A DNA stretch of 64,000 nt. Source: Candidatus Poribacteria bacterium. GTDB lineage: Bacteria; Poribacteria; WGA-4E; WGA-3G. Below, one piece after another: positions 32,591 to 50,795 of this stretch (the first letter of the stretch is position 1; every line of letters begins with the position of its first letter). The stretch spans positions 254,343 to 318,342 of the forward strand of contig CBDHCS010000007.1 of assembly GCA_965261125.1 (NCBI GenBank), in the 5' to 3' direction. The position numbers and the translations under genes were made by a program. The notes beneath the pieces are model-generated. The model was not told where the DNA came from, did not search any database, and was given only the letters and a program-made list of their open reading frames with translations.

Positions 32591-33508
32591 ATGGATAAAA
32601 CACACTCAAAATCTCAAAAACAAGGCACCCAGACAAGCGCGTTCGGCACACCTGGCAGAATTAATCACGACTCAAGTGAATTCTATAAAGGCAGGCTATA
32701 CACCAATCAGGAACCTTCAGAACCCGAAACGTGGGTAGAAAACCCAATTCCAACTGAAAACCTTAACCAACTCTATTGTACCTCAAGCGAACAGATGTCC
32801 GAAATTCCAGATGGCAGCATCCATCTGATGGTCACGTCACCGCCCTATAATGTCAAAAAGGAATACGATGACGATCTGTCGTTAGACGAATACAGAGAAC
32901 TCTTACGTAAAGTGTTTGCCGAAACTTACAAAAAATTGGTGACTGGGGGGCGGGCATGTATAAATATCGCAAATTTAGGGCGAAAACCGTATATCCCATT
33001 GCATAGCTACATCATAGAAGATATGTTGGAAATAGGTTACTATATGCGTGGAGAAATCATTTGGGACAAAGCCGCAAGTGCGGGAAGTTCTACGGCATGG
33101 GGGAGTTGGTTGTCGGCAGCAAACCCTGTGCTAAGAGACGTGCATGAATATATCCTCGTTTTCTCAAAAGATACCTTTTCTCGGCAGCGCAACGGTAAAG
33201 AAAATTCTATCTGCAAAGAGGGTTTCTTAGAGTGGACAAAAAGCGTTTGGACGTTTCCTTCTGTTTCTGCCAAACGTATCGGTCATCCCGCCCCTTTTCC
33301 TGAGGAGTTGCCACATCGATTAATTCAACTCTACACTTTCATAGGAGATGTGGTATTAGACCCATTTTGTGGGAGCGGAACAACCTGTTTGAGTGCCGTT
33401 AAATTAGATAGACACTACATCGGTTACGATATTGAAGAAGAGTATATAAAATTGGCAAACGAGCGGATCAGACAGTCCACTGAGCAACTCCGTTTGCCAA
33501 TAGGTTGA
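32591..33508 (+). CDS. DNA methyltransferase, N4/N6 beta-class (motif IV SPPY, then motif I)
   Basis: LMVTSPPYNV (motif IV), HPAPFPEELPHRLI, VLDPFCGSGTT (motif I). No adjacent endonuclease is recognisable. Confidence 0.85.
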   Translation: MDKTHSKSQKQGTQTSAFGTPGRINHDSSEFYKGRLYTNQEPSEPETWVENPIPTENLNQLYCTSSEQMSEIPDGSIHLMVTSPPYNVKKEYDDDLSLDEYRELLRKVFAETYKKLVTGGRACINIANLGRKPYIPLHSYIIEDMLEIGYYMRGEIIWDKAASAGSSTAWGSWLSAANPVLRDVHEYILVFSKDTFSRQRNGKENSICKEGFLEWTKSVWTFPSVSAKRIGHPAPFPEELPHRLIQLYTFIGDVVLDPFCGSGTTCLSAVKLDRHYIGYDIEEEYIKLANERIRQSTEQLRLPIG

Positions 33509-33778: not shown

Positions 33779-36082
33779 CTATGGTGAAATTGTATACGTT
33801 TTGCCTGCTTCCGTGTGAAAGCTAACAACATCTCTTGACTGAGAATACTTAACTCGTTGACCATTGCATGTCACAGAGACAGTGCCAGGCGTTCTGACCC
33901 AACAATCATTCCCAAGAGTTGATAACAATTGCGCTTGGGTAAGTTTCCCATTTTCCCATGCCATATCCACTTCAAAACCGCCGCGGGCGCGTAATCCTTT
34001 GACATATCCTGTGTCCCAAGCTTGTGGAAGCGCAGGAAGCAAGTTAACTTCGCCAGCATGGCTCTGTAGCAACATTTCAGCGATACCCGCAGTTCCACCG
34101 AAATTACCATCAATCTGAAATGGCGGGTGCGTATCAAACAGGTTTGTCAAGGTACACCTCGCGAGAAGTGCTTGTAGATGGTTGTATGCCTCCTCTGCCT
34201 CCTCAAACCTTGCAAAGAAGTTGATGAGCCAAGCGCGACTCCATCCTGTTTGTCCGCCGCCGTGTTGCAACCGATATTCCAACGATTTCTTTGCCGCTGC
34301 CGCCAACTCTGGCGTACCGCGTAATGTTATCTGACAACTCGGATGCAGCCCATACATGTGTGACATGTGTCGGTGTCCAGGCTCCGGTTCGTCATAATCG
34401 AATACCCACTCCTGCAGTCGCCCTGTCTTCTCACTAATCTGCAGTGGCGCGAGCCGTTCAAGTGCAGAGACCAATTCTGCGCGGAAATCCGCTTCACCGC
34501 CAAGTACATCAATACAAGCGATGCAATTTGTGAAGAGTTCATGGATAATCTCCAAGTCCATCGTTGCAGCATAAGTAAAAAGGGAACGTTCGCCATCAGG
34601 CTTCAAAAAACTATTTTCGGGTGAGTGGGACGGATTTGTGACGAGTTTACCAGCAACGGGTGTGCCTTCGGGGGCTTCAACGAGGAAATCAAGTACAAAA
34701 CGGGCAGCACCCTTCATCAACGGGTATGCCTGTTTCTTAAGGAATTCCACATCTCCGCCAAAAAGGTAGTGTTCCCACACATGCTCACTCAACCATGCAG
34801 CACCCATCGGAGAGATACCCCAAATACCATCAGCAGGTGTTGTAAACCCCCACACATCGGAGAGATGATGGACAACCCATCCTCCAGCACCGTAGTGGCG
34901 TTTCGCTGTCTGATTACCCGGTTCAACGAGTGTGTCCATATAATCAAAAAGCGGTTTATGGCACTCTGGCAGATTACAGACTTCAGGGACCCAATAGTTC
35001 ATCTGTAGGTTGATGTTGGTATGAAAATCGCTGTTCCAAGGTGCCTTCATATGCTCGTTCCAAATCCCTTGCAGGTTTGCGGGGAGGCAACCCGGTCGCG
35101 AACTTCCCATTAATAGATAACGTCCATATTGAAAGTAGAGTGAAACGAGTCCTGGATCTGCTGCACCTTCTTTCACCGCTGCCAAACGTTCATTGGTCGG
35201 CAAATTTTCCGCATCGGTAGAACCGAGGTTTATGTCAACGCGTCTAAAGAGGGATTGATGTTCTGCGATGTGGTCTGCACGAATTGCTTCATAAGATTTT
35301 GTTTCAACAGCTGCAAGATAATTTTCACAAAGTTCATGTGGGTTTCCACTTGCATCTTTTTGATTAATGTAACTTGTCGCCCCAACGAGTAGAAGGGTAA
35401 CAGCATTCGCGTCATTCACAGAGATTCGGTCACCTTTCGACTGAACTTGCCCATCCTCAACGTTCAATTGTAAATATGCTGAAAACCGAACGATACCATC
35501 GCTGCACTGTCCGCTGAGTCTGAGAGTACTGTCAGAGATGGCTTCAACGGTGGCATCCTGTTCCCGTGTCATCGTAGCATCGAAAGTTATGTGGTTTGAT
35601 GGATCACATTCAATTCGGATGACGATGAGATTGTCTACTGCTGTTGCAAAAACTTCTCTGCTAAAATTGACATCTTCGCAGTGATAGGTCGTTTTCGCGA
35701 TGCCAGTGTCCAAATCCAGTTCTCGGCGATATTCTGTAACATCAGCCTCATGCGGAAATTCCAAGATGATATCTCCTAAAGACTGATACGATTTGACACG
35801 GGATGGTACTCCCAACATCGTTTCGCCTGCAAGTTTTGTTGCTTCGTCGTTTTTATCTTCAAAGAGCAATTGTTGCACTTTCGGGAGTGCTTCTAACGCC
35901 TTTGGGTTGTTAGTATCTTGCGGAGCGCCTTCCCAAAGCGTATCTTCGTTAAGTTGAATGCGTTCGCGTTCAACACCTCCGAACACCATCGCACCGAGTC
36001 GCCCGTTTCCGACTGGAAGTGCGTCTGTCCACTGTTCGGCAGGTTTGTTATACCATAAAACATAATCATTTATATTTTTCAT
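33779..36082 (-). CDS. Glycoside hydrolase family 95 (alpha-L-fucosidase-like)
   Basis: N-terminal [41 protein letters not shown] is the classic GH95 opening. The ~770 aa length fits, as does the NLQGIWN segment. Confidence 0.9.
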
Positions 36083-36158
36083 AGTTTACCTCTAATTTAA
36101 TAATTTAAACACTAAGAACTGCAGATATTAGAAACTTTTGGATTTGATTCTTAGCCTA

Positions 36159-36941
36159 TTATAGCGTTGAATTATTGAGTTCATGAAGTCGTCTCTCTAG
36201 GTAGGACATTAACTCAAAATGTCCCTGCTGTTTTGATAGGTTCAATGCAGTCTGAAAATCTAATATAGCTTCATCAATTCTACCCAAACCCCATTTTATT
36301 GTTCCACGAAGAGCGTGAGCTTTTGCATGAGTATTCTTCAAATCAATGGTTTTGCCTAAATCATCAATAGCGGCTTCATATTTATTTAGCATGACATTTA
36401 CATTTGCTCTACCCAAATAGGTTTCTGCATTTTCCCTATCAAAATGAATTGCCTTGTCATAATCCTTAAGGGCATCATCATATTTGCCAAGAGCAGTATT
36501 CGCATCACCTCGAAGTTTATATGTTATACCACTATCAGATTCTAGTTCAATTGCTTTATCACAATCCAATATGGCCTCATCATATTCTTCCAAAAAATAT
36601 TTCACCAAAGCAAGACCATGATAGGACCTTGCATTTTCACCTTTTAGTTCAATTGCCTTATTATAGTCATCGATCGCTTCATAATCTACATCTAATGAAA
36701 ATTTTACTGTCCCACGAAGATTGTAGGCATCCGCATAATCTGGTTTTAACTCAATTGCCTTGTCTAAAGCAGAAAGTGCCCGTGCCTTATTGAAATCGGA
36801 GATTGTCTGATTATTATCAAATTTTCTAAAATAGAGATCTCCTAAACAAGCCCCAAACCATTGCAGCAAGTTCATCATCTGTTTCTTTCGCAGTATCAGC
36901 GATAGCGCGCCACTTTTCAATAGCTTCATGGATTTTTCCAT
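36159..36941 (-). CDS. TPR-repeat protein (start uncertain; possibly the C-terminal part of the upstream gene)
   Basis: At least 5 canonical 34-aa TPR units (DKAIELKPDYADAYNLRG..., NKAIELKGENARSYHGLA..., etc.). The 5' end overlaps the 36826-37491 ORF in another frame. Confidence 0.7.
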   Translation of the reverse strand: MEKSMKLLKSGALSLILRKKQMMNLLQWFGACLGDLYFRKFDNNQTISDFNKARALSALDKAIELKPDYADAYNLRGTVKFSLDVDYEAIDDYNKAIELKGENARSYHGLALVKYFLEEYDEAILDCDKAIELESDSGITYKLRGDANTALGKYDDALKDYDKAIHFDRENAETYLGRANVNVMLNKYEAAIDDLGKTIDLKNTHAKAHALRGTIKWGLGRIDEAILDFQTALNLSKQQGHFELMSYLERRLHELNNSTL

Positions 36942-37491
36942 CCTGTTGCAACTTGTACGCTTCAGCTATATCCTTTTTGTTTATGTGAGACGAATCAGGC
37001 TTTTTAGAAATTTTTTCAATGATTTCAGCAGTTTCCTCCTCAGGGTTAGGAATAATTTTTGCAGAGGATTCATCCAGAAAATTGTTTACCAGAGACAATT
37101 TTTCTTTAATGGCTCCGCTATATTTTTCGGAGTCGGATAGGATTTTTCGCACATCGTTCTTAAATCTCTGTGCATCAGATTCAATTTTATCAATTATACT
37201 TCGCGCTTCGATTTCAAGTTTCTGGAATTTCTTTAAGCTAAATATAGTTGCCAATGTAATTAGAATAGGGATTACAACCCCGAAAAAGGCAACAACGATA
37301 CCAAGTACAGCTAACCATTGATCTATATGTTCAGCCCGTCGATCTAATCTTTCATTTCTTTCACGAATTTTATCGTCTACAAGTTTTTGGATTTCAGGTT
37401 CTGTCATCTGTGCAGACAATACCATCAACTCACTTGCAAGCATTACACCTAACAATAGGGCAATTACAACAATTCTCATTTTATTATGCAC
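36826..37491 (-). CDS. Membrane-anchored coiled-coil protein
   Basis: Signal/TM helix MRIVVIALLLGVMLASELMVLSA, second TM helix WLAVLGIVVAFFGVVIPILITLATIF, then a helical region. The C-terminus begins a TPR-like helix pair (AEAYKLQQDGKIHEAIEKWRAIA). Confidence 0.6.
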   Translation of the reverse strand: MHNKMRIVVIALLLGVMLASELMVLSAQMTEPEIQKLVDDKIRERNERLDRRAEHIDQWLAVLGIVVAFFGVVIPILITLATIFSLKKFQKLEIEARSIIDKIESDAQRFKNDVRKILSDSEKYSGAIKEKLSLVNNFLDESSAKIIPNPEEETAEIIEKISKKPDSSHINKKDIAEAYKLQQDGKIHEAIEKWRAIADTAKETDDELAAMVWGLFRRSLF

Positions 37492-37546
37492 ATTTTCCTC
37501 CAGGTAAATAGGTTCTTTGAATGAACAGGATTAATTTGAGAACACA

Positions 37547-40204
37547 CTACCACATCCAACGCTTCCTACCTCCGAAACTACGTATGAGCTTTGCAGAGCT
37601 ATATGAATGAGATCGATCTGCTATGCGTAAAGGTGTATGACCCCATTTATCCTTGGCATTGACATCCGCCCCGTTTTGTAATAAGATTTCAACCGCGTTA
37701 TGAGAATTGTCTTTGTCCGCAGATGCTGCCCAATGTAGCGGTGTCTTATCATCTTCATCTTTAGCGTTGATATGAGCACCCTTTTCTAAGAATAGCCCAA
37801 TTTTTTTATACGCATTTCCCCAGGCAGCACAATGCAAAGGTGTATAACCTCCTTCGTACTTGATGTTAACATCAGTGATATTGTTCAACAAGAGCTCCAG
37901 TGTCTCTTGTGCACTTTTACGGCGCATTTGATATTTTTCGTATAAATTAGAAAAACTTTGCATATTTGCGTTTTGTCTGGCTGCCCTGTACAGTGGGGTC
38001 TTACCAAATTGCCCTTTTGCGTTGAAGTCAGCTCTGTTTTCCAAAAAAACCGCCACCATTTCATATAGGCCTTTATCTGCAGCTAAGTGTAAAGGTGTAT
38101 CACCACTATTATCCTTTGCATTGACATCAGCTCCGTTTTTTAGTAACACTATCACAGCCTCACGTATATTTGTATGTACCATCGTCATGCTTTTATCTAC
38201 ATCAAACTCTCCATATAACCCTTGATCTACATCTGCGCTCGCAACCCAATGCAGCGGTGTTTGATTAATCTGGTCTTTTATATTAACATCGGCACCGTGT
38301 TGTAATAAAATAGACATTGCCTTGTAACCACGCGAGTATACCACGGATCGCATCGGAGCGTTGGGATCAGCACCATTTTCCAACAAGAAAGTCATTTTCT
38401 TAAGGAGTTTTTTCTCAGCTTCCTCATTATTCTTATATGCAGAAAATCTTGATATTCTACATAAGGAAGTTTCCCCATTCTTGGCTTTTTCGTTGATATT
38501 GACACCGTTTTTCAACAAAATCAACACTGTTTCACGTATATCTTCCACGGATTTGTCATTTACCACCGCACAGTGTAAAGGTGTATCACCGTTTCTATTC
38601 TTCACATTGATATCAATACCATTTTGCAGTAATACATTTATTGCTTCTGGAGAATTTGCGGTTGCAGCCCAGTGCAATGGCGCGTCATCATGACCACGGC
38701 GAATTGGGGTTACGCCATTATTGTTTCTTGCGTTAATATCAGCACCATTTTGCAGCAAAACCACCAATGTGTCTAACGTCTGTGCTCTCACTGCCCAGTG
38801 CAGTGGCGTGTCACCTTTATTGTCTCTTGCGTTGATATCCGCACCATTTTGTAGCAACATCAGCATCTGATGTGTATTTTTTTTACTCACAGCCTGGTGG
38901 AGTGGGGAGGCACCATTATTATCTCTTGCATCAACATCAATATAATCAACAATATAGTTGTTAGGTAAAGTTCCAACTGTTCTTGCAGCAACATTACAAG
39001 AAATGGGAACTGTCAAATTACCTCCACTCGTATTGATGATTAGTGATGTTTGATGTGTCTTGTTAGATATAAGAAGACTCGTATCCAATTCAACGATAAC
39101 AACGGTATCACCGCGGATATTAGGCGGTGAAATATTAAGACCTGATATTTTGTTAGTCAATTCTACATTACCATAAAGAAATCCACGGTTGACGTTCTTA
39201 ATCTCTAAATGCATGATTTTCCGGGTTTCTGCATGGACTTCACCGAAATTAATGTGGGTATGATTGACCTCTAGCTTGGGTTTCTCAATCTTCGGGTTAA
39301 GGTATTGAACAAATTCCTCCAAACCGATGTCCTGTTCGGTATTATAACGATTGATTATGTTTTTAGCTGCATTTGCTAATTGTCCTTTTTTAGTGTGCTC
39401 AAACCAGAGATCAAGGAAGCCATTGTAAAGCAATTCCTTTGCTTGTTCCCAATTCTCATCAATCAAACATGTTATTTCATGAGGTGTTTCAGCTTCATTT
39501 CCTCGTATCTGAAATTTCAATTTTCCCTGAAGGATTTGCACCATCGCGAGAAACCCCATATTCTGATTATCAGGAAATTTACTTATAATCGTCCCTGCTG
39601 CTTTGGCAAAATTCATCTCACCTGCTTCATTGAAGTATTGTTCCAAACTACCTGAATAAAGTATTTCAACCGCATCAAGGTGATTCTTCTCCATCAAGGT
39701 TGCTAACTGCTGGATGGTAGTGGCTTCATCACCGTTAGGGAATTTGAAGATGGGACGCGTATCTTCTTCTAAAGTCTGACTATTCTCATCATATTGGAAC
39801 ACGGCAATGTGTTCACTTCGCTTTTGTGGGTTTTTTAGAGTATCACGCGCTTGGTTCAAAACTGCTCGCCACTGTTCCTCTGTTCTACCATCAGGACGCA
39901 CACGACCACCAGCATTCAGAGATTCACGGTAAAGTTTTTTATGTGCAGCATCAACTTTAGATGTAATAGTAGATTCATTTTGATTCTGAAAATCTTCTAT
40001 AGAAAATCCCAATACCTCAAAATAGTTTTCCTTTTCCCCGATGACCAATGCTGCGGCTTTCAGGATTTCAACAGCATCATCAACGGAAAGATCATGCTGT
40101 TGTACTGCCCTGCGTAGAAGACCCTTGCGTTGTTCCTCTGTGATAGTTGCTGAAACCGATTTTAAATCATCTATGAATGCAATAAATTCATCGCGTTTAG
40201 ACAT
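37547..40204 (-). CDS. J-like (HPD-less) N-module protein with a central unknown region, a beta-sandwich-like segment and a long ankyrin-repeat array
   Basis: N-terminal MSKRDEFIAFI...NYFEVLGFS...[43 protein letters not shown]. More than 10 ankyrin units (GASPLHQAV..LLQNGADINARDNKGDTPLHWAV...). Confidence 0.85.
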   Translation of the reverse strand: MSKRDEFIAFIDDLKSVSATITEEQRKGLLRRAVQQHDLSVDDAVEILKAAALVIGEKENYFEVLGFSIEDFQNQNESTITSKVDAAHKKLYRESLNAGGRVRPDGRTEEQWRAVLNQARDTLKNPQKRSEHIAVFQYDENSQTLEEDTRPIFKFPNGDEATTIQQLATLMEKNHLDAVEILYSGSLEQYFNEAGEMNFAKAAGTIISKFPDNQNMGFLAMVQILQGKLKFQIRGNEAETPHEITCLIDENWEQAKELLYNGFLDLWFEHTKKGQLANAAKNIINRYNTEQDIGLEEFVQYLNPKIEKPKLEVNHTHINFGEVHAETRKIMHLEIKNVNRGFLYGNVELTNKISGLNISPPNIRGDTVVIVELDTSLLISNKTHQTSLIINTSGGNLTVPISCNVAARTVGTLPNNYIVDYIDVDARDNNGASPLHQAVSKKNTHQMLMLLQNGADINARDNKGDTPLHWAVRAQTLDTLVVLLQNGADINARNNNGVTPIRRGHDDAPLHWAATANSPEAINVLLQNGIDINVKNRNGDTPLHCAVVNDKSVEDIRETVLILLKNGVNINEKAKNGETSLCRISRFSAYKNNEEAEKKLLKKMTFLLENGADPNAPMRSVVYSRGYKAMSILLQHGADVNIKDQINQTPLHWVASADVDQGLYGEFDVDKSMTMVHTNIREAVIVLLKNGADVNAKDNSGDTPLHLAADKGLYEMVAVFLENRADFNAKGQFGKTPLYRAARQNANMQSFSNLYEKYQMRRKSAQETLELLLNNITDVNIKYEGGYTPLHCAAWGNAYKKIGLFLEKGAHINAKDEDDKTPLHWAASADKDNSHNAVEILLQNGADVNAKDKWGHTPLRIADRSHSYSSAKLIRSFGGRKRWMW

Positions 40205-40265
40205 CTATTCGTTTCTCTTCAAAATTAGCGTGTTTACACTATACCCAAATGTTGTCAGATAAGAA

Positions 40266-41486
40266 TTATAACAATACAGATTTAACACAACGAAAGCCAA
40301 TCTCAGGGTTCGTGAGTCGAGGGTGGTTGGGACAGCGGTTAGAGATACCCACGTCTTGAACTGTAGTGACCCAAGAGCCACCCCGCAAAACACGGGGTTT
40401 TTTAATACTTTTGAAATTGTTTGTCACACTTATGATATTTTCATCTGATAACAGATTCCGGCGTGGAAAACTCCCATAAAATCCATACTCATCAAGACAC
40501 CATTCCCACACGTTTCCCACCATATCGTATAAATCGTACCCGTTCGGAGGATAATTCCCTATGGGTGTAGTTGAACCGACATTTTTGCCATAGTTTGCCT
40601 TATTAGTATCTATCAAATCGCCCCATGGATATTTTTGATCTACCAATCCACCACGTGCTGCCTTTTCCCATTCTGCCTCTATCGGTAAACGCTTGCCTAA
40701 CCACTCGGCATAAGCCATCGCCGCATACCAACTAATATGGACAACTGGATGCTCAGCTTTGTCCTCCGGGTAATCGTTCCCATTCCAGTGGTGAAGGTAG
40801 TAACTATCGTGGTACGCGGCGGAAAGAAATTTTGTAACTCCTTTCGGTTTCCTCCATCGTGGGTTAGCATCAACAAATGTCTTGTATTGTGCATTGGTTA
40901 CCGGATACTTGTCCATATAGAATGCGTCTACAAAAACGGTATGTATTGGCTGTTCATCACTAAATGATTCATTATCATTACTACCCATTTGCATTTGGAA
41001 CTCACCTGCTGAAATAAGCTCCATGTTATCAAGATATAATGGAGCTAATGGTGTTTCTACCGATTCTTCACCATGCTGGTAAATCTCAAGGTGCGCGCGT
41101 CGTTTTTGTGGGTCTATTAGCGCATCACGCGCTTGATTCAGAATTGTTCTCCACTGTTCTTCTGTCCTACCATCGGCGCGGGGACGACCACCTGCCCTTA
41201 ACGATTCACTGTAAAGTTTTTTGTGTGCTGTCTCAACGCGATTTGCAATGACCGATTCGCTTTGGTTTTCAAACTCTGGAGCAGATAAACCCAAGACCTC
41301 AAAATAATCAATCTGCTCACCGACAACTAATCCTGATGCATCAAGAATATCATTCGCCTCTTCAACAGTAAGATCATGCTGCTGGACCGCTTGTCGGAGA
41401 AATCCTTTGCGTTGTTCGTTAGAAATAGATGGTGAAGCATTTCTAACCGCCTGAATAATTGTAATAAATTCATCGCGTTTGGACAT
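40266..41486 (-). CDS. J-like (HPD-less) N-module protein fused to an FGE-sulfatase (SUMF1/formylglycine-generating-enzyme-like) domain
   Basis: It has the same N-module as its neighbours. C-terminal FYMDKYPVTNAQYKTFV...HPVVHISWYAAMAYAEWLGKRLPIEAEWEKAARGG...GNVWEWCLDEY...RVLRGGSW...GFRCV. Confidence 0.85.
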   Translation of the reverse strand: MSKRDEFITIIQAVRNASPSISNEQRKGFLRQAVQQHDLTVEEANDILDASGLVVGEQIDYFEVLGLSAPEFENQSESVIANRVETAHKKLYSESLRAGGRPRADGRTEEQWRTILNQARDALIDPQKRRAHLEIYQHGEESVETPLAPLYLDNMELISAGEFQMQMGSNDNESFSDEQPIHTVFVDAFYMDKYPVTNAQYKTFVDANPRWRKPKGVTKFLSAAYHDSYYLHHWNGNDYPEDKAEHPVVHISWYAAMAYAEWLGKRLPIEAEWEKAARGGLVDQKYPWGDLIDTNKANYGKNVGSTTPIGNYPPNGYDLYDMVGNVWEWCLDEYGFYGSFPRRNLLSDENIISVTNNFKSIKKPRVLRGGSWVTTVQDVGISNRCPNHPRLTNPEIGFRCVKSVLL

Positions 41487-41584
41487 TCGGTATGCCTCTT
41501 TCTAAAAATTGATACAAACAAATATGTATTGTTGCTGTTTCTCAGAAATTTATCTGAGCCAATAAGCATCGTATAATCTTAACC

Positions 41585-42958
41585 TTAACTACTGGGTGTG
41601 AGATTCCACAGACGTACATCTTTGTCCGTACTACAAGTAGCAAGAGTCCTGCCATCAGGCGAATACGCAAGCGATTTAACCAAAGATGAGTGCCCTGTAA
41701 GAGTATCTTTAGGTTGTCCAGTAACAGCATCTAACAAATAAACTGTTCCAAAAAAACTTCCATAGGCGAGAGTGAGATTATCGGGGGAATACGCTACTGA
41801 ACTAACCCAAGATAAGTATCCAGAGAGAGGGATTTTGGGTTCTCCAGTAGTAGCACTCCACTCAAGAACTTTTCCATAGATACAAGTACTCGTAACTACT
41901 TTACTATCAGGTGAATACACTACAAAACTTGCGCTATGCTTATGACCTGTAAGCGTGTGTATATTTTGACATGTAATAGCATCCCATAAACGAACTGTCC
42001 TATCATAACCTGCACTTACGATCATCTTACCATCGGGCGAATACGCTACTGAACTAATCCAATTCTTATGTCCTCTGAGATCGTATTTGAATTGTCCTGT
42101 GGCAGCATCCCACAAACGAACTGTCCTATCATAACTTGCACTTGCGATCATCTTACCATCGGGCGAATACGCTACTGAACTAATGTTGTCCTTATGTCCA
42201 CTCAGGGCGTTTTTGAGTTTTCCAGTGGTAGTGTCCCACAAACACACTATGCTGTCATAACTCACACTGACGAGTGTCTTACCATCAGGTGAATATGCTA
42301 TTGAACTGACGGTGTCTTTGTGTCCAGTGAGAGTATTTTTAGATTTTCCTGTGACAGCATCCCATAGATATATTGTCTTGTCTGCACCGCCACTTGCAAC
42401 GGTAGTCCCATCAGGTGAAAACGCAACGGAATAGACAATGTCCTCATGTGCTGTAAAAACTACATTTCTTGCTTGAATTGGAGGTTTCACGGTAGCACCG
42501 TTTGAATTTAGAAAAATATCTTCGTTAGATTCTCTACCTTCCGTGTCATTCAGCTCCGCAATATGTTCATATCTTTTTTTCGGATCACTAAGAATATCTC
42601 GCGCTTGATTCAGAATTGTTCGCCACTGCTCCTCTGTTCTACCATCAGCGCGAGGTCGACCGCCTGCTCTCAATGACTCAGCATACAGTTTTTTGTGCGC
42701 CGCTTCAACGCGGGATGTAACGTCCGATTCGCTTCGGTTTTTAAGTTTAGAAAATGATAAACCCAGAACCTCAAAATAATCAACTTGCTCACCGATAGCC
42801 AATCCCGATGCATTGAGGATATTAGATGCTTCATCAAAGGTAAGACCGTGCTGCTGAATCCCTAATCGCAGAAAACCTTTGCGTTGTTCATCGGTAATTG
42901 TTGGGGAAGCAGTTTTGAGGGTATTGATAAATGATATAAATTCCTCACGTTTGGACAT
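41585..42958 (-). CDS. J-like (HPD-less) N-module protein fused to a 7-bladed WD40 propeller
   Basis: By homology with the two paralogs, the start is the [11 protein letters not shown] at 42958 (the track starts at 42979). There are seven units of the type [24 protein letters not shown]....L.GH. Confidence 0.85.
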
Positions 42959-43049
42959 ACGTTTGTTCCTTCTGTTCAAACTTAGGAGATTATAGAAATC
43001 GCACCATAAATTGTTTCTGTCAAAAAGTGGTTATTTTAAGAATCCATGC

Positions 43050-44645
43050 CTATTCAACTACGAGGTCTTGTAGATCAGTTTTTGCTTGTGCCACTTCCTC
43101 TTCATTGAGCGTTGGTCGATCAATAATCGAAAAAATGTCATAAATAGCCGTTGCACCTTCGTTAGAGAGAGATGTGGCAGTGACCTCAAGATTCTGGTCC
43201 AAGTTATACTTGTAGATGACTTCAATTGGAGACCCTTGAGGTAAACCTGGGGGCAGTTTGAGCGTACATTCACCCAATTTATATTCATCAAATAGGTCAA
43301 TTTCGTCCTTGAGTTGTTCCTGTTCAAGCCCTTGTACCACCTCAATTAAAACGGAAGGTTGATTGTGATCCACCGTCAAAAACTTATCCGCTATTTCGCA
43401 CGGAACAGCAGTCATTTTAGGAATCATCACGTGAATAATATGCTCGCGTTGAGAGTTGAGAACGACGAGTCCGAGATTATGTGTAGCACCATCGGTTACA
43501 GTCACTTTCGGAGCGCCGTCTGGTCCAATAAACCGTTCAATGACAGCGTCCGGCATATCTGTTGTTTCGGTGCTTCCTTCGGATATTTGGCGGAGTGTTC
43601 CCTGAATTGCTGCACCGATGGCGACAACTTCGTCCGGATTGACTTCATACGGGTTGATCTCTTTACCACTAATTGTGGCAATCATCTGCTGCACCATAGG
43701 CATCCGAGTTGAGCCACCTACCAGCAGGATTTTGTCAATATCTGTCCACGTCATTTCTGCTTCGGAAAGGACAACATCACACAAAACTCGGCATCTTTCA
43801 AGGAGATTATCAGTCAATTCCTCGAACTTTCCGCGCTCCAGTTCCACACGGGTTGTTTTCCCGTTGTAACCACAAACGATCAATGCTCGCTGCCGCTGCG
43901 ACAAAGATTCTTTCGCAGCAATCGCATCAAGTTGAAGGTCTTGGTACGTATGAAGGTCTTCTAACGGATTTTCTCCGTGTTCAATTTCAAACATCTCAGC
44001 GACGTGCGTGATGATTTTATCGTCCCAATCCTTACCGCCGAGCCGATGGTCACCATTCGTTGCGAGCATCTGAATTTCTGATTCGGAAACTTTCATGATG
44101 GTTACGTCAAACGTTCCGCCTCCAAGGTCAAATACGAACACATTTTGGTTACTGCCCAATTGATCAATACCGTAGGCAAGCGCAGCGGCTGTAGGTTCGT
44201 TCAGCACTTGCAGCACATTCAAACCAGCGATTTTTCCAGCGTTGCGAGTCGCTTCACGTTCAGCATCATGAAAATAGGCAGGGACAGTGATAACCGCATC
44301 CGTAATTTCTTCATTCAGATATGCCTCTGCATCCTGCTTGAGTTTTGTCATAATAAGTGCTGAGAGTTCTTCGGGGGAGTAGTCTTTCCCATCAAATGAA
44401 CGAAAGAATTCCGACTTGGATTTACCCATTTCACGTTTCACGAATTCTACGATCTGTTCAGGAACTGCTCTGGCGTTCTGCTTGGCGATTTTCCCGACAG
44501 TTACGAGATTGTCCTCAAACAGGACTACCGATGGCGTAATACGATCACTTTCTAAATTCGGAATAATCTCTGGTTGACCATGCTCATTGATATGTGCTAT
44601 CACAGAGAATGTCGTGCCAAGATCAATCCCAACAACTTTACCCAT
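43050..44645 (-). CDS. Hsp70-family ATPase, short (about 531 aa), lacking most of the helical lid
   Basis: Strong AGGAAGGAGG RBS 7 nt before the ATG at 44645. VVGIDLGTTFSV, DLGGGTFDVTIM and ILLVGGSTRMPMV actin-fold motifs. A beta-sandwich SBD is followed by only ~25 residues. Confidence 0.9.
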   Translation of the reverse strand: MGKVVGIDLGTTFSVIAHINEHGQPEIIPNLESDRITPSVVLFEDNLVTVGKIAKQNARAVPEQIVEFVKREMGKSKSEFFRSFDGKDYSPEELSALIMTKLKQDAEAYLNEEITDAVITVPAYFHDAEREATRNAGKIAGLNVLQVLNEPTAAALAYGIDQLGSNQNVFVFDLGGGTFDVTIMKVSESEIQMLATNGDHRLGGKDWDDKIITHVAEMFEIEHGENPLEDLHTYQDLQLDAIAAKESLSQRQRALIVCGYNGKTTRVELERGKFEELTDNLLERCRVLCDVVLSEAEMTWTDIDKILLVGGSTRMPMVQQMIATISGKEINPYEVNPDEVVAIGAAIQGTLRQISEGSTETTDMPDAVIERFIGPDGAPKVTVTDGATHNLGLVVLNSQREHIIHVMIPKMTAVPCEIADKFLTVDHNQPSVLIEVVQGLEQEQLKDEIDLFDEYKLGECTLKLPPGLPQGSPIEVIYKYNLDQNLEVTATSLSNEGATAIYDIFSIIDRPTLNEEEVAQAKTDLQDLVVE

Positions 44646-45342
44646 TGGCGTTACCTCCTTCCTCATTTAAAGGAGATTCATCTGCGGCAGATGTATAACG
44701 AAAAATTGTCACCTCTTCTGGTCGGAACACTTTATCTCGCCAGTTAAACCCGACTTTGTGAACTTCCGCCACTTTTCCATCCTGTTTTGGATCATCGGAT
44801 GATATTACTTTGCGCGTTTTGTGTAACTGCCGATCAAGTGTCTCCAGGGATTCCTTATAGGGTGTTACATCCATGCGGTATAACACTTCTTCCAGTTTAA
44901 ACCGGAAGTTTTCTAAATTCTTCCTATATTGTGACAGTTCTTCTAAGAGCATGCTCTCCTCTTTATCAGTGAGGATGTCATCAAGTTGAGATTCTATAGA
45001 TAGAAAACTATCGTAAAGTTGGATGAGATTGTGGATAATCGGTTTGTGAAGCACCTCAAGCAGAAAACTCTCTTTATAGTCCTTCATTTCAGTGTACATT
45101 TTGTCAAACATCTGGGTTTGATTCTGGTTGCGGGCAATTTGTTTTTCAAATAAGTCTTGCAACGCAGCCAAAGTCTGATTTATTTCTATGAGTGCATTTG
45201 CTTGCGGTATTTCTAAGTCATCCGTATCCGTTTGCGGATCAGTCTCAACAGGACCTGTGTTTTCTTCCAAATATAAATCTTCATCTGTATTCACATCAGT
45301 CTGGACACTGATATCGTTATTTCCATTCACTTGCTTACTCAA
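44638..45342 (-). CDS. GrpE-like nucleotide exchange factor (divergent)
   Basis: The C-terminal KVAEVHKVGFNWRDKVFRPEEVTIF matches the GrpE beta-domain pattern (V..V...G......v.RPa.V.v), with a long helical region upstream. The proposed TTG start at 45342 lies 7 nt after AAGGAGAG. The stop overlaps the Hsp70 start by 8 nt. Confidence 0.65.
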   Translation of the reverse strand: MSKQVNGNNDISVQTDVNTDEDLYLEENTGPVETDPQTDTDDLEIPQANALIEINQTLAALQDLFEKQIARNQNQTQMFDKMYTEMKDYKESFLLEVLHKPIIHNLIQLYDSFLSIESQLDDILTDKEESMLLEELSQYRKNLENFRFKLEEVLYRMDVTPYKESLETLDRQLHKTRKVISSDDPKQDGKVAEVHKVGFNWRDKVFRPEEVTIFRYTSAADESPLNEEGGNANG

Positions 45343-45406
45343 AATTGAACTCTCCTTGCAACAAAGGTTTTCTTGGAGGCGGTACTGTTTAGTAAAGTCT
45401 CTTTTG

Positions 45407-45435
45407 ATTATACAATGGATTAGGTGGAATGTCAA
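45407..45435 (-). promoter_or_regulatory. Consensus sigma70 promoter of the GrpE-Hsp70 operon
   Basis: On the minus strand: TTGACA (45435-45430), a 17-nt spacer, TATAAT (45412-45407). The -35 element coincides with the ORF-track start codon, which argues for the downstream TTG start. Confidence 0.6.
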
Positions 45436-45807
45436 CTATAGCAATGTCTCAATTACAAAGATTATAGTAGCATCCACAATTAAGTTCACACATGAAAAGC
45501 AGATATAGCGTGATTTTGAACGCCACATCTGCTGGACTTCACTATAAAACTATACTTTTTTTGAGGTGAAGCATGACAAGAAAACTATCTTGCCACTTGA
45601 TAAATATGTTAGCAGAAGTGCCAGACTCACGCAACAATAACCCTGCTAAAAATGGTATAACCTTGACTTTTGCCCTGAAATGTGATAAAATTCCAGACAA
45701 AATAAAACGGTATTGCCACATAAAGGAGACACCGAATTTTGGCGTTGTAGGGTGAGATTTGTGGATCTATTTTAAAGTACAAGCCAAAACTTACTGTTTG
45801 ACATAAC

Positions 45808-47379
45808 ATGGTTGAATTTTACGATACAACACTCAGGGACGGTAGCCAAGCCGAGGGCGTAGCATTCTCGGTTGAAGATAAACTTATCATCATAGAAGTG
45901 TTGGATGAATTGGGTATCCGCTATATTGAAGGTGGCTACCCTGGTTCTAATCCGAAAGATATAGAGTTCTTCAAACGAGCGAAAGACATGGCGTTAAAAA
46001 CGGCAGCAATTGTGCCTTTCGGCAGTACACGCTATCCTACTTATGCTCCCGATGCTGATCCCAATTTGTCTGCTTTGCTTGATACAGGTGCAAGAACTGT
46101 TACGATTTTTGGTAAAAGTTGGCGGCTTCATGCAACAGATGTGTTACGTGTAACAGCAAATGAGAACTTAGAATTAATTGAGAGTTCTGTTAAATATCTT
46201 GTCGAAAATGGGCGTGAAGTGATTTACGATGCAGAACACTTTTTTGATGGTTATGCTGACGATTTGGAATATGCAGTTGAGACGCTTCGTGCGGCGGCTG
46301 CAGGTGGTGCGAAATGTCTTGTTCTTTGTGATACTAACGGCGGTCGGTTGCCTTTAGAAATTCAGCAAGGCATCAAAGCAGCAATGTCCGCGCTGCCTTT
46401 ACCTATCGGTATCCATGCACATAACGACGCAGGTATGGGGGCAGCGAACTCTGTGTTAGCTGTTCAAGCTGGTGCAAACCATGTGCAAGGAACATTCAAC
46501 GGCTATGGTGAGCGGTGTGGAAATGCTAATCTCGCCGCTATCATTCCTACAATTCAGTTAAAGTTAGGTATTGCGTGTATCAGCGATACGCAGCTGCAAG
46601 AAATTACCAGGGTATCTCGGTTAATCAGTGAGTTGGCAAATCTGCCGCATGATGAACGTCAACCTTATGTTGGGCGTTCCGCTTTTGCGCACAAAGGTGG
46701 CTTACACACCGATGCCATCCGTAAGAACCGCTTTACTTATGAACATATTGAACCAGAAAAGGTCGGCAATACACAGCGGATCCTTGTCTCCGACCAAGCA
46801 GGTCGGGGCACCATCATGAAAAAAATTGAGAAGGAATATCCCAATTACGATAAAAACTCACCACAAGTGCTTGAGCTTTTCAATCGCGTCAAAGAAGCCG
46901 AGAGTGAAGGGTATCAGTATGAAGCCGCTGAAGCATCTTTTGAACTCTTGACGCGCAAAGTCTTTAATGGGTATGAATCCTTTTTTGAACGACTCGGTTT
47001 TCGTGTCATTATTGAGAAGTTCACTGACCATACTATGCGTTCAGAGGCAACAGTAAAGGTCACTACACCCGATGGTGCCACAACCCACACCGCGGCGGAT
47101 GGAGACGGACCTGTCAACGCTCTGGATACCGCACTCAGAAAGGCGCTTGAACAGTTCTATCCAGTCTTACAGACAGTCAGATTGATAGATTACAAAGTTC
47201 GGGTATTAGATACCAAAGCAGGAACCGGTTCAAAAGTGCGTGTGCTTATTGAGGCGAGTGATGGTGAAATGAGTTGGGGAACCGTCGGAGTTTCAGAAAA
47301 CATCATATCCGCAAGTTACGAAGCACTCATTGATAGTTTTGAATACAAATTGTATAAAGAAGAAGATTCGATCAAGTAA
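45808..47379 (+). CDS. cimA: Citramalate synthase / 2-isopropylmalate synthase family enzyme with a LeuA-dimer regulatory domain
   Basis: MVEFYDTTLRDGSQAEGVAFS..., HAHNDAGMGAANS, GERCGNANL. The C-terminal ACT-like LeuA_dimer region and the ~520 aa length fit CimA-type enzymes. CimA and LeuA cannot be separated by eye. Confidence 0.8.
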   Translation: MVEFYDTTLRDGSQAEGVAFSVEDKLIIIEVLDELGIRYIEGGYPGSNPKDIEFFKRAKDMALKTAAIVPFGSTRYPTYAPDADPNLSALLDTGARTVTIFGKSWRLHATDVLRVTANENLELIESSVKYLVENGREVIYDAEHFFDGYADDLEYAVETLRAAAAGGAKCLVLCDTNGGRLPLEIQQGIKAAMSALPLPIGIHAHNDAGMGAANSVLAVQAGANHVQGTFNGYGERCGNANLAAIIPTIQLKLGIACISDTQLQEITRVSRLISELANLPHDERQPYVGRSAFAHKGGLHTDAIRKNRFTYEHIEPEKVGNTQRILVSDQAGRGTIMKKIEKEYPNYDKNSPQVLELFNRVKEAESEGYQYEAAEASFELLTRKVFNGYESFFERLGFRVIIEKFTDHTMRSEATVKVTTPDGATTHTAADGDGPVNALDTALRKALEQFYPVLQTVRLIDYKVRVLDTKAGTGSKVRVLIEASDGEMSWGTVGVSENIISASYEALIDSFEYKLYKEEDSIK

Positions 47380-49765: not shown

Positions 49766-49856
49766 TATAGCACAAACTTTAGTTTGGGTTTCCGATAAGA
49801 CGCAAACTGACAGTTTGCTCTACAGAAGTGTCCCATTAATTATAGGTTTTACTATA
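49766..49856. mobile_element. MITE family A copy (A3, shortened); its right TIR overlaps the 3' end of the methyltransferase gene
   Basis: agacgcaaactgacagtttgctctacagaagtgtcccattaattataggttttactata is near-identical to the right half of A2. Confidence 0.65.
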
Positions 49857-50795
49857 AAAAGTTGTCTTTATTCTCTCTTGTGCGCGACCTGCCATCTCAG
49901 CCTCAATCTCATACCCGATAAAATTCCTGCCTTCAAGTATCGCCGCGACTCCAGTTGATCCTGACCCCGCGAAAGAATCAAGAACGAGGGCGCGGGGTGC
50001 AGAAAAAATGCGGATGAGGTGTTGCAGTAAATCAACAGGTTTTGCGGTCATGTGTCCATATCGCTCTTTTGGTTTATTTGATGGAATGACAGTTCCCGGA
50101 AATTGAGATGTGTTGATCAAAGGGTTGTTCACGTCAATTAGTCCAGTTTCCCACTTATCCCAGTTATCAACAAAAGTTCCTTCTCTGGGGGCTTGTCCGA
50201 GAATTATCATTTCCCCTTGTGGCTTTAGTTGTGGTGTTTTCCGTCCGCCTATTTTTTGAATAAGCCGGTCTTTTTCTTTTGTTGGAATCTTTCGTTTACG
50301 GATAAAATGATCTTGTGAGAATGCTTTTGCTTGTCCTTCATATCGCCATATCAAAATGTCCCGTATTTCAAAACCCGCGTCTTCTAATGCAATAGCGGTT
50401 CTATGTGCGAGTCGGTTTTGGCTAAAAACGAGGCAAAATCCGCCGGGGCGAATAACGCGCATCCATTCTTCAGCAATAGGTGAAAGAAAACGTTGCAACT
50501 CTCGTCCCTGTTCGACAGAAAACTTCATCCCCGCTGGTAGTGAACCGATAACGCCTGGTTTCACTCGTGCATTTAACTTTCGTGTGTCCCAATCATCCCC
50601 CATGCCATCAATGAAATAGGGGGGATCTGTAAGCACAAGAGAGACAGAATTCTCATCGAGTTGTTTCATTCCAATCCGACAATCTTCATTTTCTATTATT
50701 GCGGATAAATCCTCATGAGTTGCTGGCGAACGGAATAACTTTTGCTGATATAGTGAGAATTTGTCTGGACCATCATCAATATTTTCGTTTTTCAA
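49836..50795 (-). CDS. DNA methyltransferase, beta-class N6-adenine type (DPPY)
   Basis: LVLTDPPYFI (motif IV), GHMTAKPVDLLQHLI, VLDSFAGSGSTGVAA (motif I). No endonuclease gene is adjacent. Confidence 0.85.
   Translation of the reverse strand: MKNENIDDGPDKFSLYQQKLFRSPATHEDLSAIIENEDCRIGMKQLDENSVSLVLTDPPYFIDGMGDDWDTRKLNARVKPGVIGSLPAGMKFSVEQGRELQRFLSPIAEEWMRVIRPGGFCLVFSQNRLAHRTAIALEDAGFEIRDILIWRYEGQAKAFSQDHFIRKRKIPTKEKDRLIQKIGGRKTPQLKPQGEMIILGQAPREGTFVDNWDKWETGLIDVNNPLINTSQFPGTVIPSNKPKERYGHMTAKPVDLLQHLIRIFSAPRALVLDSFAGSGSTGVAAILEGRNFIGYEIEAEMAGRAQERIKTTFYSKTYN

Follow-up and report, generated by a model that had tools for sequence, protein, structure and literature searches.

The canonical J-domain (PF00226; DnaJ, CbpA, HscB, DjlA) has a four-helix topology with a hairpin of helices II and III; the His-Pro-Asp (HPD) tripeptide in the loop of this hairpin is treated as a universal, indispensable signature of the domain. 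When DnaJ meets DnaK, D35 of HPD forms hydrogen bonds with R167 and Q378, H33 touches the linker backbone at L391 and P34 is in contact with P419 (PMC8215388). The sole natural variant of the tripeptide found in large surveys is the rare HPE of DjlB and DjlC (PMC10410713). Three prokaryotic types of Hsp70 are recognised: DnaK, HscA and HscC (PMC8215388). The gene cluster described here lies in a 64,000-nt stretch of DNA (the window) from Candidatus Poribacteria bacterium (WGA-4E; WGA-3G), corresponding to positions 254,343–318,342 of the forward strand of contig CBDHCS010000007.1 (assembly GCA_965261125.1). It encodes a GrpE-like protein, a short Hsp70 and three paralogous proteins that share an N-terminal module (N-module), composed of a head (residues 1–57) and a J-like part without HPD. 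The shared module is followed by a WD40 propeller in paralog 1, an FGE-sulfatase-fold domain in paralog 2 and ankyrin (Ank) repeats in paralog 3.

The N-module is fairly likely to be the constant docking end of exchangeable adaptors that serve a private, co-evolved J-domain/Hsp70/GrpE machine. The comparison set for this reading consisted of the window and 55 loci (L001–L055) of about 20 kb each, surveyed for N-modules with a local hidden Markov model (HMM) and phmmer. The 55 loci contain 248 N-module matches in tandem arrays of 1–10 genes; 230 distinct N-modules were extracted as the basis of the column and conservation counts, and the wider family is represented by 89 relatives after 50% clustering. 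All 55 recovered genome loci and every named relative bear the name Poribacteria. No description of the cluster or of the family was found in the literature searched, for Poribacteria or any other organism, and Pfam, NCBIfam and PADLOC have no specific name for the components, which are called only ‘Hsp70 family protein’ or ‘hypothetical protein’ in the source.

A module of about 135 residues common to the three paralogs had been described in an earlier note on this DNA. It is real: the first ~135 residues of the WD40, FGE and Ank paralogs align without gaps at 61–68% identity, and at the DNA level the modules form a 300-nt three-copy repeat with 71–75% identity. All of the motifs quoted for it are found, namely MSKR(D/E)EFI, EQRKG(F/L)LR, (D/N)YFEVLG(L/F)S, AHKKLY.ESL and RTEEQWR..LNQARD.L.(D/N)P.KR. 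The range 39794–42958 assigned to the module is bounded by the end of the N-module in the Ank gene and by the WD40 start codon, and thus takes in whole genes besides the N-modules.

Judged by its predicted fold and by remote homology, the region of residues ~58–137 is a true but strongly diverged J-domain, although not by the curated definition; the J-domain fold proposed in the earlier note is thus borne out. The AlphaFold2 (AF2) model of the N-module, built for the paralog 2 sequence with an alignment of 29 family sequences (pLDDT 82.9), has helices at residues 61–64 and 69–72, a long helix at 77–98, a loop at 99–108 and helices at 109–124 and 126–139, with a four-helix J topology and an antiparallel helix II/III hairpin. 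In a Foldseek comparison of this model with the PDB, ranks 1–7 are all J-domains (Tid1, Ydj1, DNAJB1 and a Plasmodium Hsp40), with probabilities of 0.98–1.0 over about 75 columns; the TM-score on the target is 0.56–0.73 for isolated J-domains and about 0.15 for the two matches to a 400-residue DnaJ-kinase fusion. The family profile compared with PDB sequences has J proteins as its five best matches and as 7 of all 8 (Jac1, 0.014; HscB, 0.033; mL77). An hhalign comparison of the 230 family sequences with eight canonical J-domains gives a probability of 94.3% and an E-value of 9.7e-8. When 1.84 billion representative proteins were searched with the profile, only 133 reached the threshold of E 1e-3, and the weak end of this set is formed by HPD-bearing J proteins (P0155, E 4e-6; P0163, E 4e-4). 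The module also resembles canonical J-domains in the YFEVLG start of helix I, in the LNQARD.L.DP.KR end of helices III/IV, in its N-terminal place on proteins with variable client-binding domains and in the pairing with Hsp70 and GrpE genes. It differs in having a Pro-Arg-x-Asp-Gly sequence within a longer loop instead of His-Pro-Asp, about five extra residues between helices I and II and about seven at the end of helix II according to hhalign, and a 57-residue head in front.

In the helix II–III loop, the literal HPD tripeptide is absent, as the earlier note had stated, from all 230 N-modules of the 55 Poribacteria loci and from all 89 clustered relatives. Eight residues, Y92, S95, L96, G99, R103, D105, W112 and L116, are invariant in 230/230 N-modules. 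The consensus of the loop is G-G-(R/L)-P-R-x-D-G-(R/K)-T, where x is Pro in 110 members, Ala in 58 and Ser in 22, so that Arg-Pro-Asp occurs in about half of them. In the wider family clustered at 50%, P-R-x-D-G persists (R in 70/89, D in 74/89), while the residues preceding the loop Pro vary between AGG(R/L) and (A/S)YAN(V/I). In the hhalign register, R103-x104-D105 falls on H33-P34-D35, after an insertion of about seven residues that ends helix II. This register is backed by P0163, in which the Asp of HPD likewise stands 11 residues from the LN(D/Q)ARD motif, and the AF2 model places the whole P-R-x-D-G segment inside the helix II–III loop. The entropy of the loop and helix III is 0.6–0.9 bits; within the FGE core, only the most invariant stretch is lower. 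According to these alignments, the literal HPD is gone, and an invariant Arg-(Pro)-Asp occupies its position or one no more than three residues away. The loop is therefore probably a variant motif rather than a lost one, and to speak of a ‘replacement’ of HPD understates it. This is a natural family in which the His of the supposedly universal signature is always Arg and the loop is longer.

The Hsp70 of the cluster is altered on its own side of the interface. Alignment with the DnaK structure pairs ‘lnvlQvlneptaa’ of the window Hsp70 with ‘levlRiineptaa’ and places Gln at R167. Among 45 Poribacteria cluster Hsp70s this position is Q in 40 and H in 4, with one gapped; with six Hsp70s from distant loci included (n = 51), the counts become Q 46 and H 4. 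The linker VLLLD is replaced by VTVTD in the Poribacteria cluster Hsp70s and by V(T/K/R)V(T/I)D over all 51. In the 45, moreover, E217 is changed to Q, D477 is mostly K, about 22 residues are inserted before the linker and, since only about 19 residues follow the β part of the substrate-binding domain (SBD-β), the helical lid is missing. The features characteristic of DnaK, HscA and HscC (Arg167, the hydrophobic VLLLD linker and the lid) are thus not found in this Hsp70. The six Hsp70s from distant loci have the same state of R167, linker and lid, whereas an adjoining Hsp70-vWA fusion keeps the Arg. At the level of sequence, both sides of the canonical J/Hsp70 interface have changed together in the family. 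It is chiefly this joint change of the J loop and the Hsp70 interface that speaks for a contact which works under an altered code, and against a dead J-like domain. A scan of open reading frames (ORFs) by sequence pattern, covering the window and the 55 loci only, found no canonical HPD J protein; taken together with the loss of R167, this also suggests an interface that is re-coded and working.

The close genetic linkage of the N-module with an Hsp70 and a GrpE of its own, which the earlier note had pointed out, holds in Poribacteria and in four distant relatives. Of the 55 loci, 44 contain the Hsp70, and the N-module array lies directly downstream of it in all 44. In 28 of these 44 loci, and in the window, the gene immediately before the Hsp70 encodes GrpE. 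When four distant relatives were looked up, each was found immediately after GrpE and an Hsp70 of 521–535 residues; their C-terminal parts carry transmembrane (TM) segments and peptidoglycan (PG)-binding, FGE, HEAT or TPR domains. In the distant loci L057–L059, GrpE–Hsp70–J-like triads have FHA and vWA genes, or the Arg167-keeping Hsp70-vWA fusion, immediately upstream; the J-like proteins of these triads span the membrane, and their PG-binding, SH3 or FGE domains are predicted to be on its non-cytoplasmic side. Protein P0079 (L062, 6001–7611), which apparently joins an Hsp70 nucleotide-binding domain (NBD) to a head and a degenerate J-like part, was set aside as Rosetta-stone evidence; a frameshift is likely because the contig has 1x long-read coverage and three tandem Hsp70 genes.

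In the proposed mechanism, the J-like domain would bind the junction of NBD, linker and SBD-β of the Hsp70 encoded just upstream. The lidless Hsp70 would have altered its own side of the contact, from R167 to Gln or His and from VLLLD to VTVTD. The J-like domain would then trigger ATP hydrolysis, upon which the Hsp70 would clamp cargo held by the C-terminal domain of the adaptor, whether an inactive FGE/lectin-like fold, a WD40 propeller or ankyrin repeats, and GrpE would reset the cycle. We infer the physical binding, the stimulation of the ATPase and the nature of the clients from genetic linkage and interface co-variation.

Several points weigh against this reading. The E-values of the Foldseek matches are weak, about 0.3, since the head makes up half of the query. 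The module misses the Pfam DnaJ threshold of 27.8 bits with a best score of 13.2, and of 24 members only 4 match at E < 1. The confidence of the AF2 model is lower in the loop, about 75. The register is ambiguous as well: the HMM alignment to P0155 pairs D-G-R-T with E-G-T-T and puts HPD three residues earlier. An alignment placing an HPD equivalent in the loop, which the earlier note had regarded as evidence against its own interpretation, is accordingly provided by hhalign and is shifted by three residues in the other alignment. A single His-to-Gln substitution at H33 kills DnaJ (PMC8215388). The invariant Asp is kept although the R167 of the partner is lost, and the geometry of the contact must therefore differ. 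Finally, an ankyrin protein occupies the place of GrpE in nine loci, and GrpE is absent from five.

Two other explanations of the module bear on the same evidence. The earlier note had pointed to HPD-less J-like regulators such as Pam16. In a Pam16-like explanation, the J-like domain would have lost its stimulatory motif and would only tether the Hsp70 or regulate it negatively, while a canonical J protein encoded elsewhere would stimulate the ATPase. This is unlikely, even though Pam16/Tim16 also has a J fold without HPD, one paralog gives a weak Pfam Pam16 match (17.8 bits against a cut-off of 30.3, E 0.0035) and substitutions of H33 and D35 abolish stimulation in every system tested (PMC8215388). 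The loss of literal HPD in 230 members, which the regulator explanation predicts, is accompanied by an invariant R-x-D that hhalign puts on HPD, within the loop, where conservation is highest in the module. Moreover, Pam16 acts as a heterodimer with the true J protein Pam18, which it dampens, and no such partner was found in the examined loci, none of which yielded an HPD protein in the pattern scan; a housekeeping DnaJ is itself an improbable activator because the Hsp70 has lost R167 and the hydrophobic linker, and this change of the Hsp70 interface together with the loop has no counterpart in the comparison with Pam16. The absence of HPD thus stands, and the regulator interpretation is weakened. 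More improbable still is the explanation that the N-module, chiefly its head, is a homotypic assembly module of the effector-associated domain (EAD) type that brings the paralogs together, in the manner of the NTPase conflict systems of Kaur et al., its J-like part being a relic and the Hsp70 a mere neighbour. One short helical module on FGS, WD40 and Ank domains in one locus does follow the ‘EAD principle’ (PMC8195603), relatives carry the head alone, repeated or after the J-like part, and in two loci an N-module stands in frame after the ORF of an SNF2-Mrr nuclease. Yet many headless J-like relatives are still welded to GrpE and Hsp70, the strongest constraint is on the J-like loop and helix III rather than on the head, and the partner Hsp70 carries no head, its sole apparent NBD fusion being on the contig of 1x coverage.

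A further question is what the adaptors, if such they are, would present to the Hsp70, and here a tentative explanation makes the arrays sulfatase-specific co-chaperones, whose inactive pFGE/SUMF2-like domains bind the CxPxR of unfolded sulfatases and pass them to Hsp70. Poribacteria are rich in sulfatases. About 40 loci have, immediately before the cluster and in the same orientation, an orthologous cytoplasmic Cys-type sulfatase of about 440 residues (Pfam Sulfatase 2e-64; CSPSR motif, without signal peptide; for example, L009:6032–7360 and L029:7016–8359), which overlaps the Hsp70 start in five; genuine FGEs and SUMF2 are the closest solved relatives of the FGE-fold domain (E 1e-29 to 1e-31 in the PDB). 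The sulfatase is, however, absent from the window and from the distant relatives, and WD40 and Ank domains share the same N-module. An active FGE or sulfatase-maturation catalyst is ruled out by the absence of the catalytic copper-binding Cys pair: LCHDSYC of the S. coelicolor FGE aligns to V-T-T-gap in the window protein, and the pair is present in 0/148 scorable paralogs, 65 others having no recognisable RGGS motif. Variability in the protein peaks in the groove segment that follows RGGSW (about 2.4 bits, compared with 0.6–0.9 for the J-like loop and helix III), and the same region is diversified in lectin-fold sensors, FGS and WD40 being sensor modules of NTPase conflict systems (PMC8195603). 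FGE-like and WD40 domains are also established as sensor domains of defence STAND NTPases (PMC13581612), which likewise tells against sulfatases as the clients.

The private-machine reading is supported by the observed exchange of C-terminal domains, for which the earlier note had argued. The surveyed N-modules are followed by FGE domains in 213 cases, WD40 in 18 and Ank-type domains in 3, and 13 are fragments. The window is orthologous to loci L001–L005, with 84–87% nucleotide identity over GrpE–Hsp70 and 84–88% over the downstream GH95 gene (87–88% in four of the five). In these loci, the orthologues of the N-modules of the window WD40 and Ank genes bear FGE domains. The N-module of the WD40 gene has 79–80% nucleotide identity to its orthologues, that of the Ank gene lies inside a continuous alignment of about 81–83%, and homology breaks at residues ~128–139, the C-terminal edge of the N-module. 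By these alignments, C-terminal domains have been swapped on orthologous N-modules. The WD40 and FGE paralogs do share a stretch of 28 identical residues, as described. ‘Recent duplication or gene conversion’, by which the earlier note explained it, is ruled out, since the stretch differs at 13 of 21 synonymous sites (proportion of synonymous differences, pS, 0.62) with zero non-synonymous differences, the same saturation as in the rest of the module; the identity thus reflects purifying selection and not recency. The whole N-module has a dN/dS of 0.13–0.23, and no identical run at the nucleotide level exceeds 22 nt.

The array genes turn over beside a conserved chaperone: the Hsp70s are 78–96% identical between species, and the size and content of the arrays vary widely. 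Array turnover, variation of the groove and domain swapping would fit a diversifying receptor repertoire. Such features are shared with NTPase conflict systems (Kaur et al. 2020, 2021; defence STANDs), which also have paralogs with a small N-terminal module on FGS, WD40, Ank or TPR domains and combine fast turnover and diversification with a conserved neighbouring NTPase. In contrast to those systems, the NTPase here is Hsp70 with GrpE, not STAND, MoxR or a GTPase, and the adaptor derives from a J-domain; where Kaur 2020 describes an Hsp70-GrpE theme, it goes with GAP1-N2 GTPases and employs a DnaJ domain. No effector enzyme or known defence gene was found with the cluster. Assignment to a known defence system was rejected, PADLOC giving only repeat-domain matches, as was diversification driven by a diversity-generating retroelement: within 36000–46000, nothing resembling a template repeat of the 3′ end of the FGE gene was found, the only repeats being those of the N-module, WD40 and Ank.

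Among chaperones, close analogues are the specialised bacterial pairs HscC–DjlB/DjlC and HscA–HscB, in which a non-DnaK Hsp70 has co-evolved with its own J proteins and the J motif is variable, being HPE in DjlB and DjlC (PMC10410713). HscA and HscC differ in keeping the lid and in lacking the GrpE signature motif, for which reason they are predicted (in the case of HscA, reported) not to use GrpE (PMC8215388). The Hsp70 described here is lidless (521–538 residues), has Q or H at position 167 and the linker VTVTD, and is usually encoded with GrpE. It is conceivable, if doubtful, that the cluster is a fourth prokaryotic Hsp70 machine, insulated from housekeeping chaperones by a P-R-x-D-G / Gln167 + VTVTD code and driving, in Poribacteria, either an expandable and quickly changing repertoire of lectin-like, WD40 and ankyrin receptors, as a counterpart of STAND/NLR pattern-recognition proteins, or a client-coded system for handling sulfatases. 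With the HPD-Asp-binding Arg, the hydrophobic linker and the lid all lost from the partner Hsp70, the family offers a ready-made pair for testing which contacts trigger ATP hydrolysis and for studying how orthogonal J/Hsp70 pairs stay insulated. Tandem arrays of up to ten adaptors with diversified lectin-like domains on one conserved chaperone suggest that this uncultured symbiont of sponges couples an ATPase to the recognition of ligands in a new way.

The head has no known relative, in agreement with the earlier note. A separate model of it, of very high confidence (pLDDT 93.5), shows a bundle of three helices and a β bridge of two residues. Pfam and NCBIfam give no match, and Foldseek gives no significant neighbour (best E 1.3), only generic three-helix bundles and homeodomains. 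TAL effectors, suggested by a PDB profile match (1.2e-10), were rejected as an artefact, the sum of 23 insignificant matches to ‘GLT.D..’. In distant relatives the head is missing, follows the J-like part or occurs alone or repeated; because the two parts occur separately or reordered, they are separate modules. No copies of the head or of the J-like part were found in the GrpE, Ank, TPR or sulfatase neighbours in the loci.

Seven minus-strand genes follow one another from 45435 to 36159 with short gaps or overlaps (Table 1). The end of the GrpE ORF overlaps the Hsp70 start by 29 nt. The TTGACA-17-TATAAT sequence at 45407–45435 is the probable promoter of the operon; since it overlaps the TTG start assigned mechanically to the GrpE ORF, that start is too far upstream and the true one should be further downstream. 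Likewise, the mechanical ORF of paralog 1 begins with TTG at 42979, and its MSKREEF start is at 42958.

Table 1. Positions of the cluster features in the window, listed from the promoter side.
Feature	Position	Strand	Evidence or remark
Probable promoter, sigma-70-type consensus TTGACA-17-TATAAT	45407..45435	-	12/12 matches; ahead of GrpE gene
GrpE-like nucleotide exchange factor	44638..45435	-	Pfam GrpE E 3.9e-12, 46.6 bits vs cut-off 25.8, residues 85–244
Short Hsp70, 538 aa: NBD, ~22-aa insertion, linker VTVTD, SBD-β, without helical lid	43050..44666	-	Pfam HSP70 1.6e-122
Putative adaptor paralog 1, N-module + WD40 propeller	41585..42958	-	WD40 E 1.4e-69
Paralog 1 N-module (head 1–57, J-like 58–136)	42550..42958	-	Homology to orthologous N+FGE genes of L002–L005 stops at ~42575–42595
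Paralog 1 helix II–III loop, with R103 and D105	42635..42664	-	Translation
Putative adaptor paralog 2, N-module + FGE-sulfatase-fold domain without catalytic Cys pair	40266..41486	-	Pfam FGE-sulfatase 1.5e-62
Paralog 2 N-module (the modelled sequence)	41078..41486	-	AF2 pLDDT 82.9; top seven Foldseek matches are J-domains
Paralog 2 helix II–III loop	41163..41192	-	Translation
Putative adaptor paralog 3: N-module, conserved ~260-aa middle module, ankyrin repeats	37547..40204	-	Domain search
Paralog 3 N-module	39796..40204	-	Homology to third N+FGE gene of L001–L004 stops at ~39785–39804
Paralog 3 helix II–III loop GGRVRPDGRT, carrying R-P-D	39881..39910	-	Translation
Two-TM protein, 55 nt downstream of Ank gene; possible operon tail, membership uncertain	36826..37491	-	Weak NCBIfam SLATT_1, E 0.0064
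TPR protein; possible operon tail, membership uncertain	36159..36941	-	Domain search

The two genes at the downstream end of the row vary between loci: the two-TM protein was not found beside the cluster in other loci, and in relatives the TPR gene is upstream of the cluster instead of downstream. The middle module of the Ank paralog (39004–39784, residues ~140–400) consists of two helical repeats and a subsequent β-rich part and has no Pfam match; it recurs in P0096, P0117, P0122, P0137, P0145, P0147 and P0159, mostly followed by TM segments. The ankyrin protein found in the GrpE position is about 300–330 residues long and occurs in L027, L036 (5675–6667), L038, L040, L044, L045, L047, L052 and L054.

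In L043 (6599–10411) and L049 (6605–10411), which have no Hsp70, the reading frame of an SNF2-family helicase with an Mrr-type restriction endonuclease domain runs on, with no intervening stop codon, through an entire N-module and then ends; the two may be fused, or the ORF may read through from one gene to the next. The database relatives of the N-module and of the C-terminal part of the Hsp70 (P0001–P0037 and P0164–P0188) are mostly short or frameshifted fragments located on long contigs, which suggests assembly errors or pseudogenes inside the arrays.

Synteny with the closest relatives, L001–L005, breaks exactly at 45436; upstream of this point, these loci have TPR and sulfatase genes, whereas the window has a LeuA-like gene on the opposite strand. 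The ORFs at 32591–33508 and 49836–50795, which flank the cluster, are DNA methyltransferase-like by motif (SPPY / DPPY ... DPF.GSG.T).

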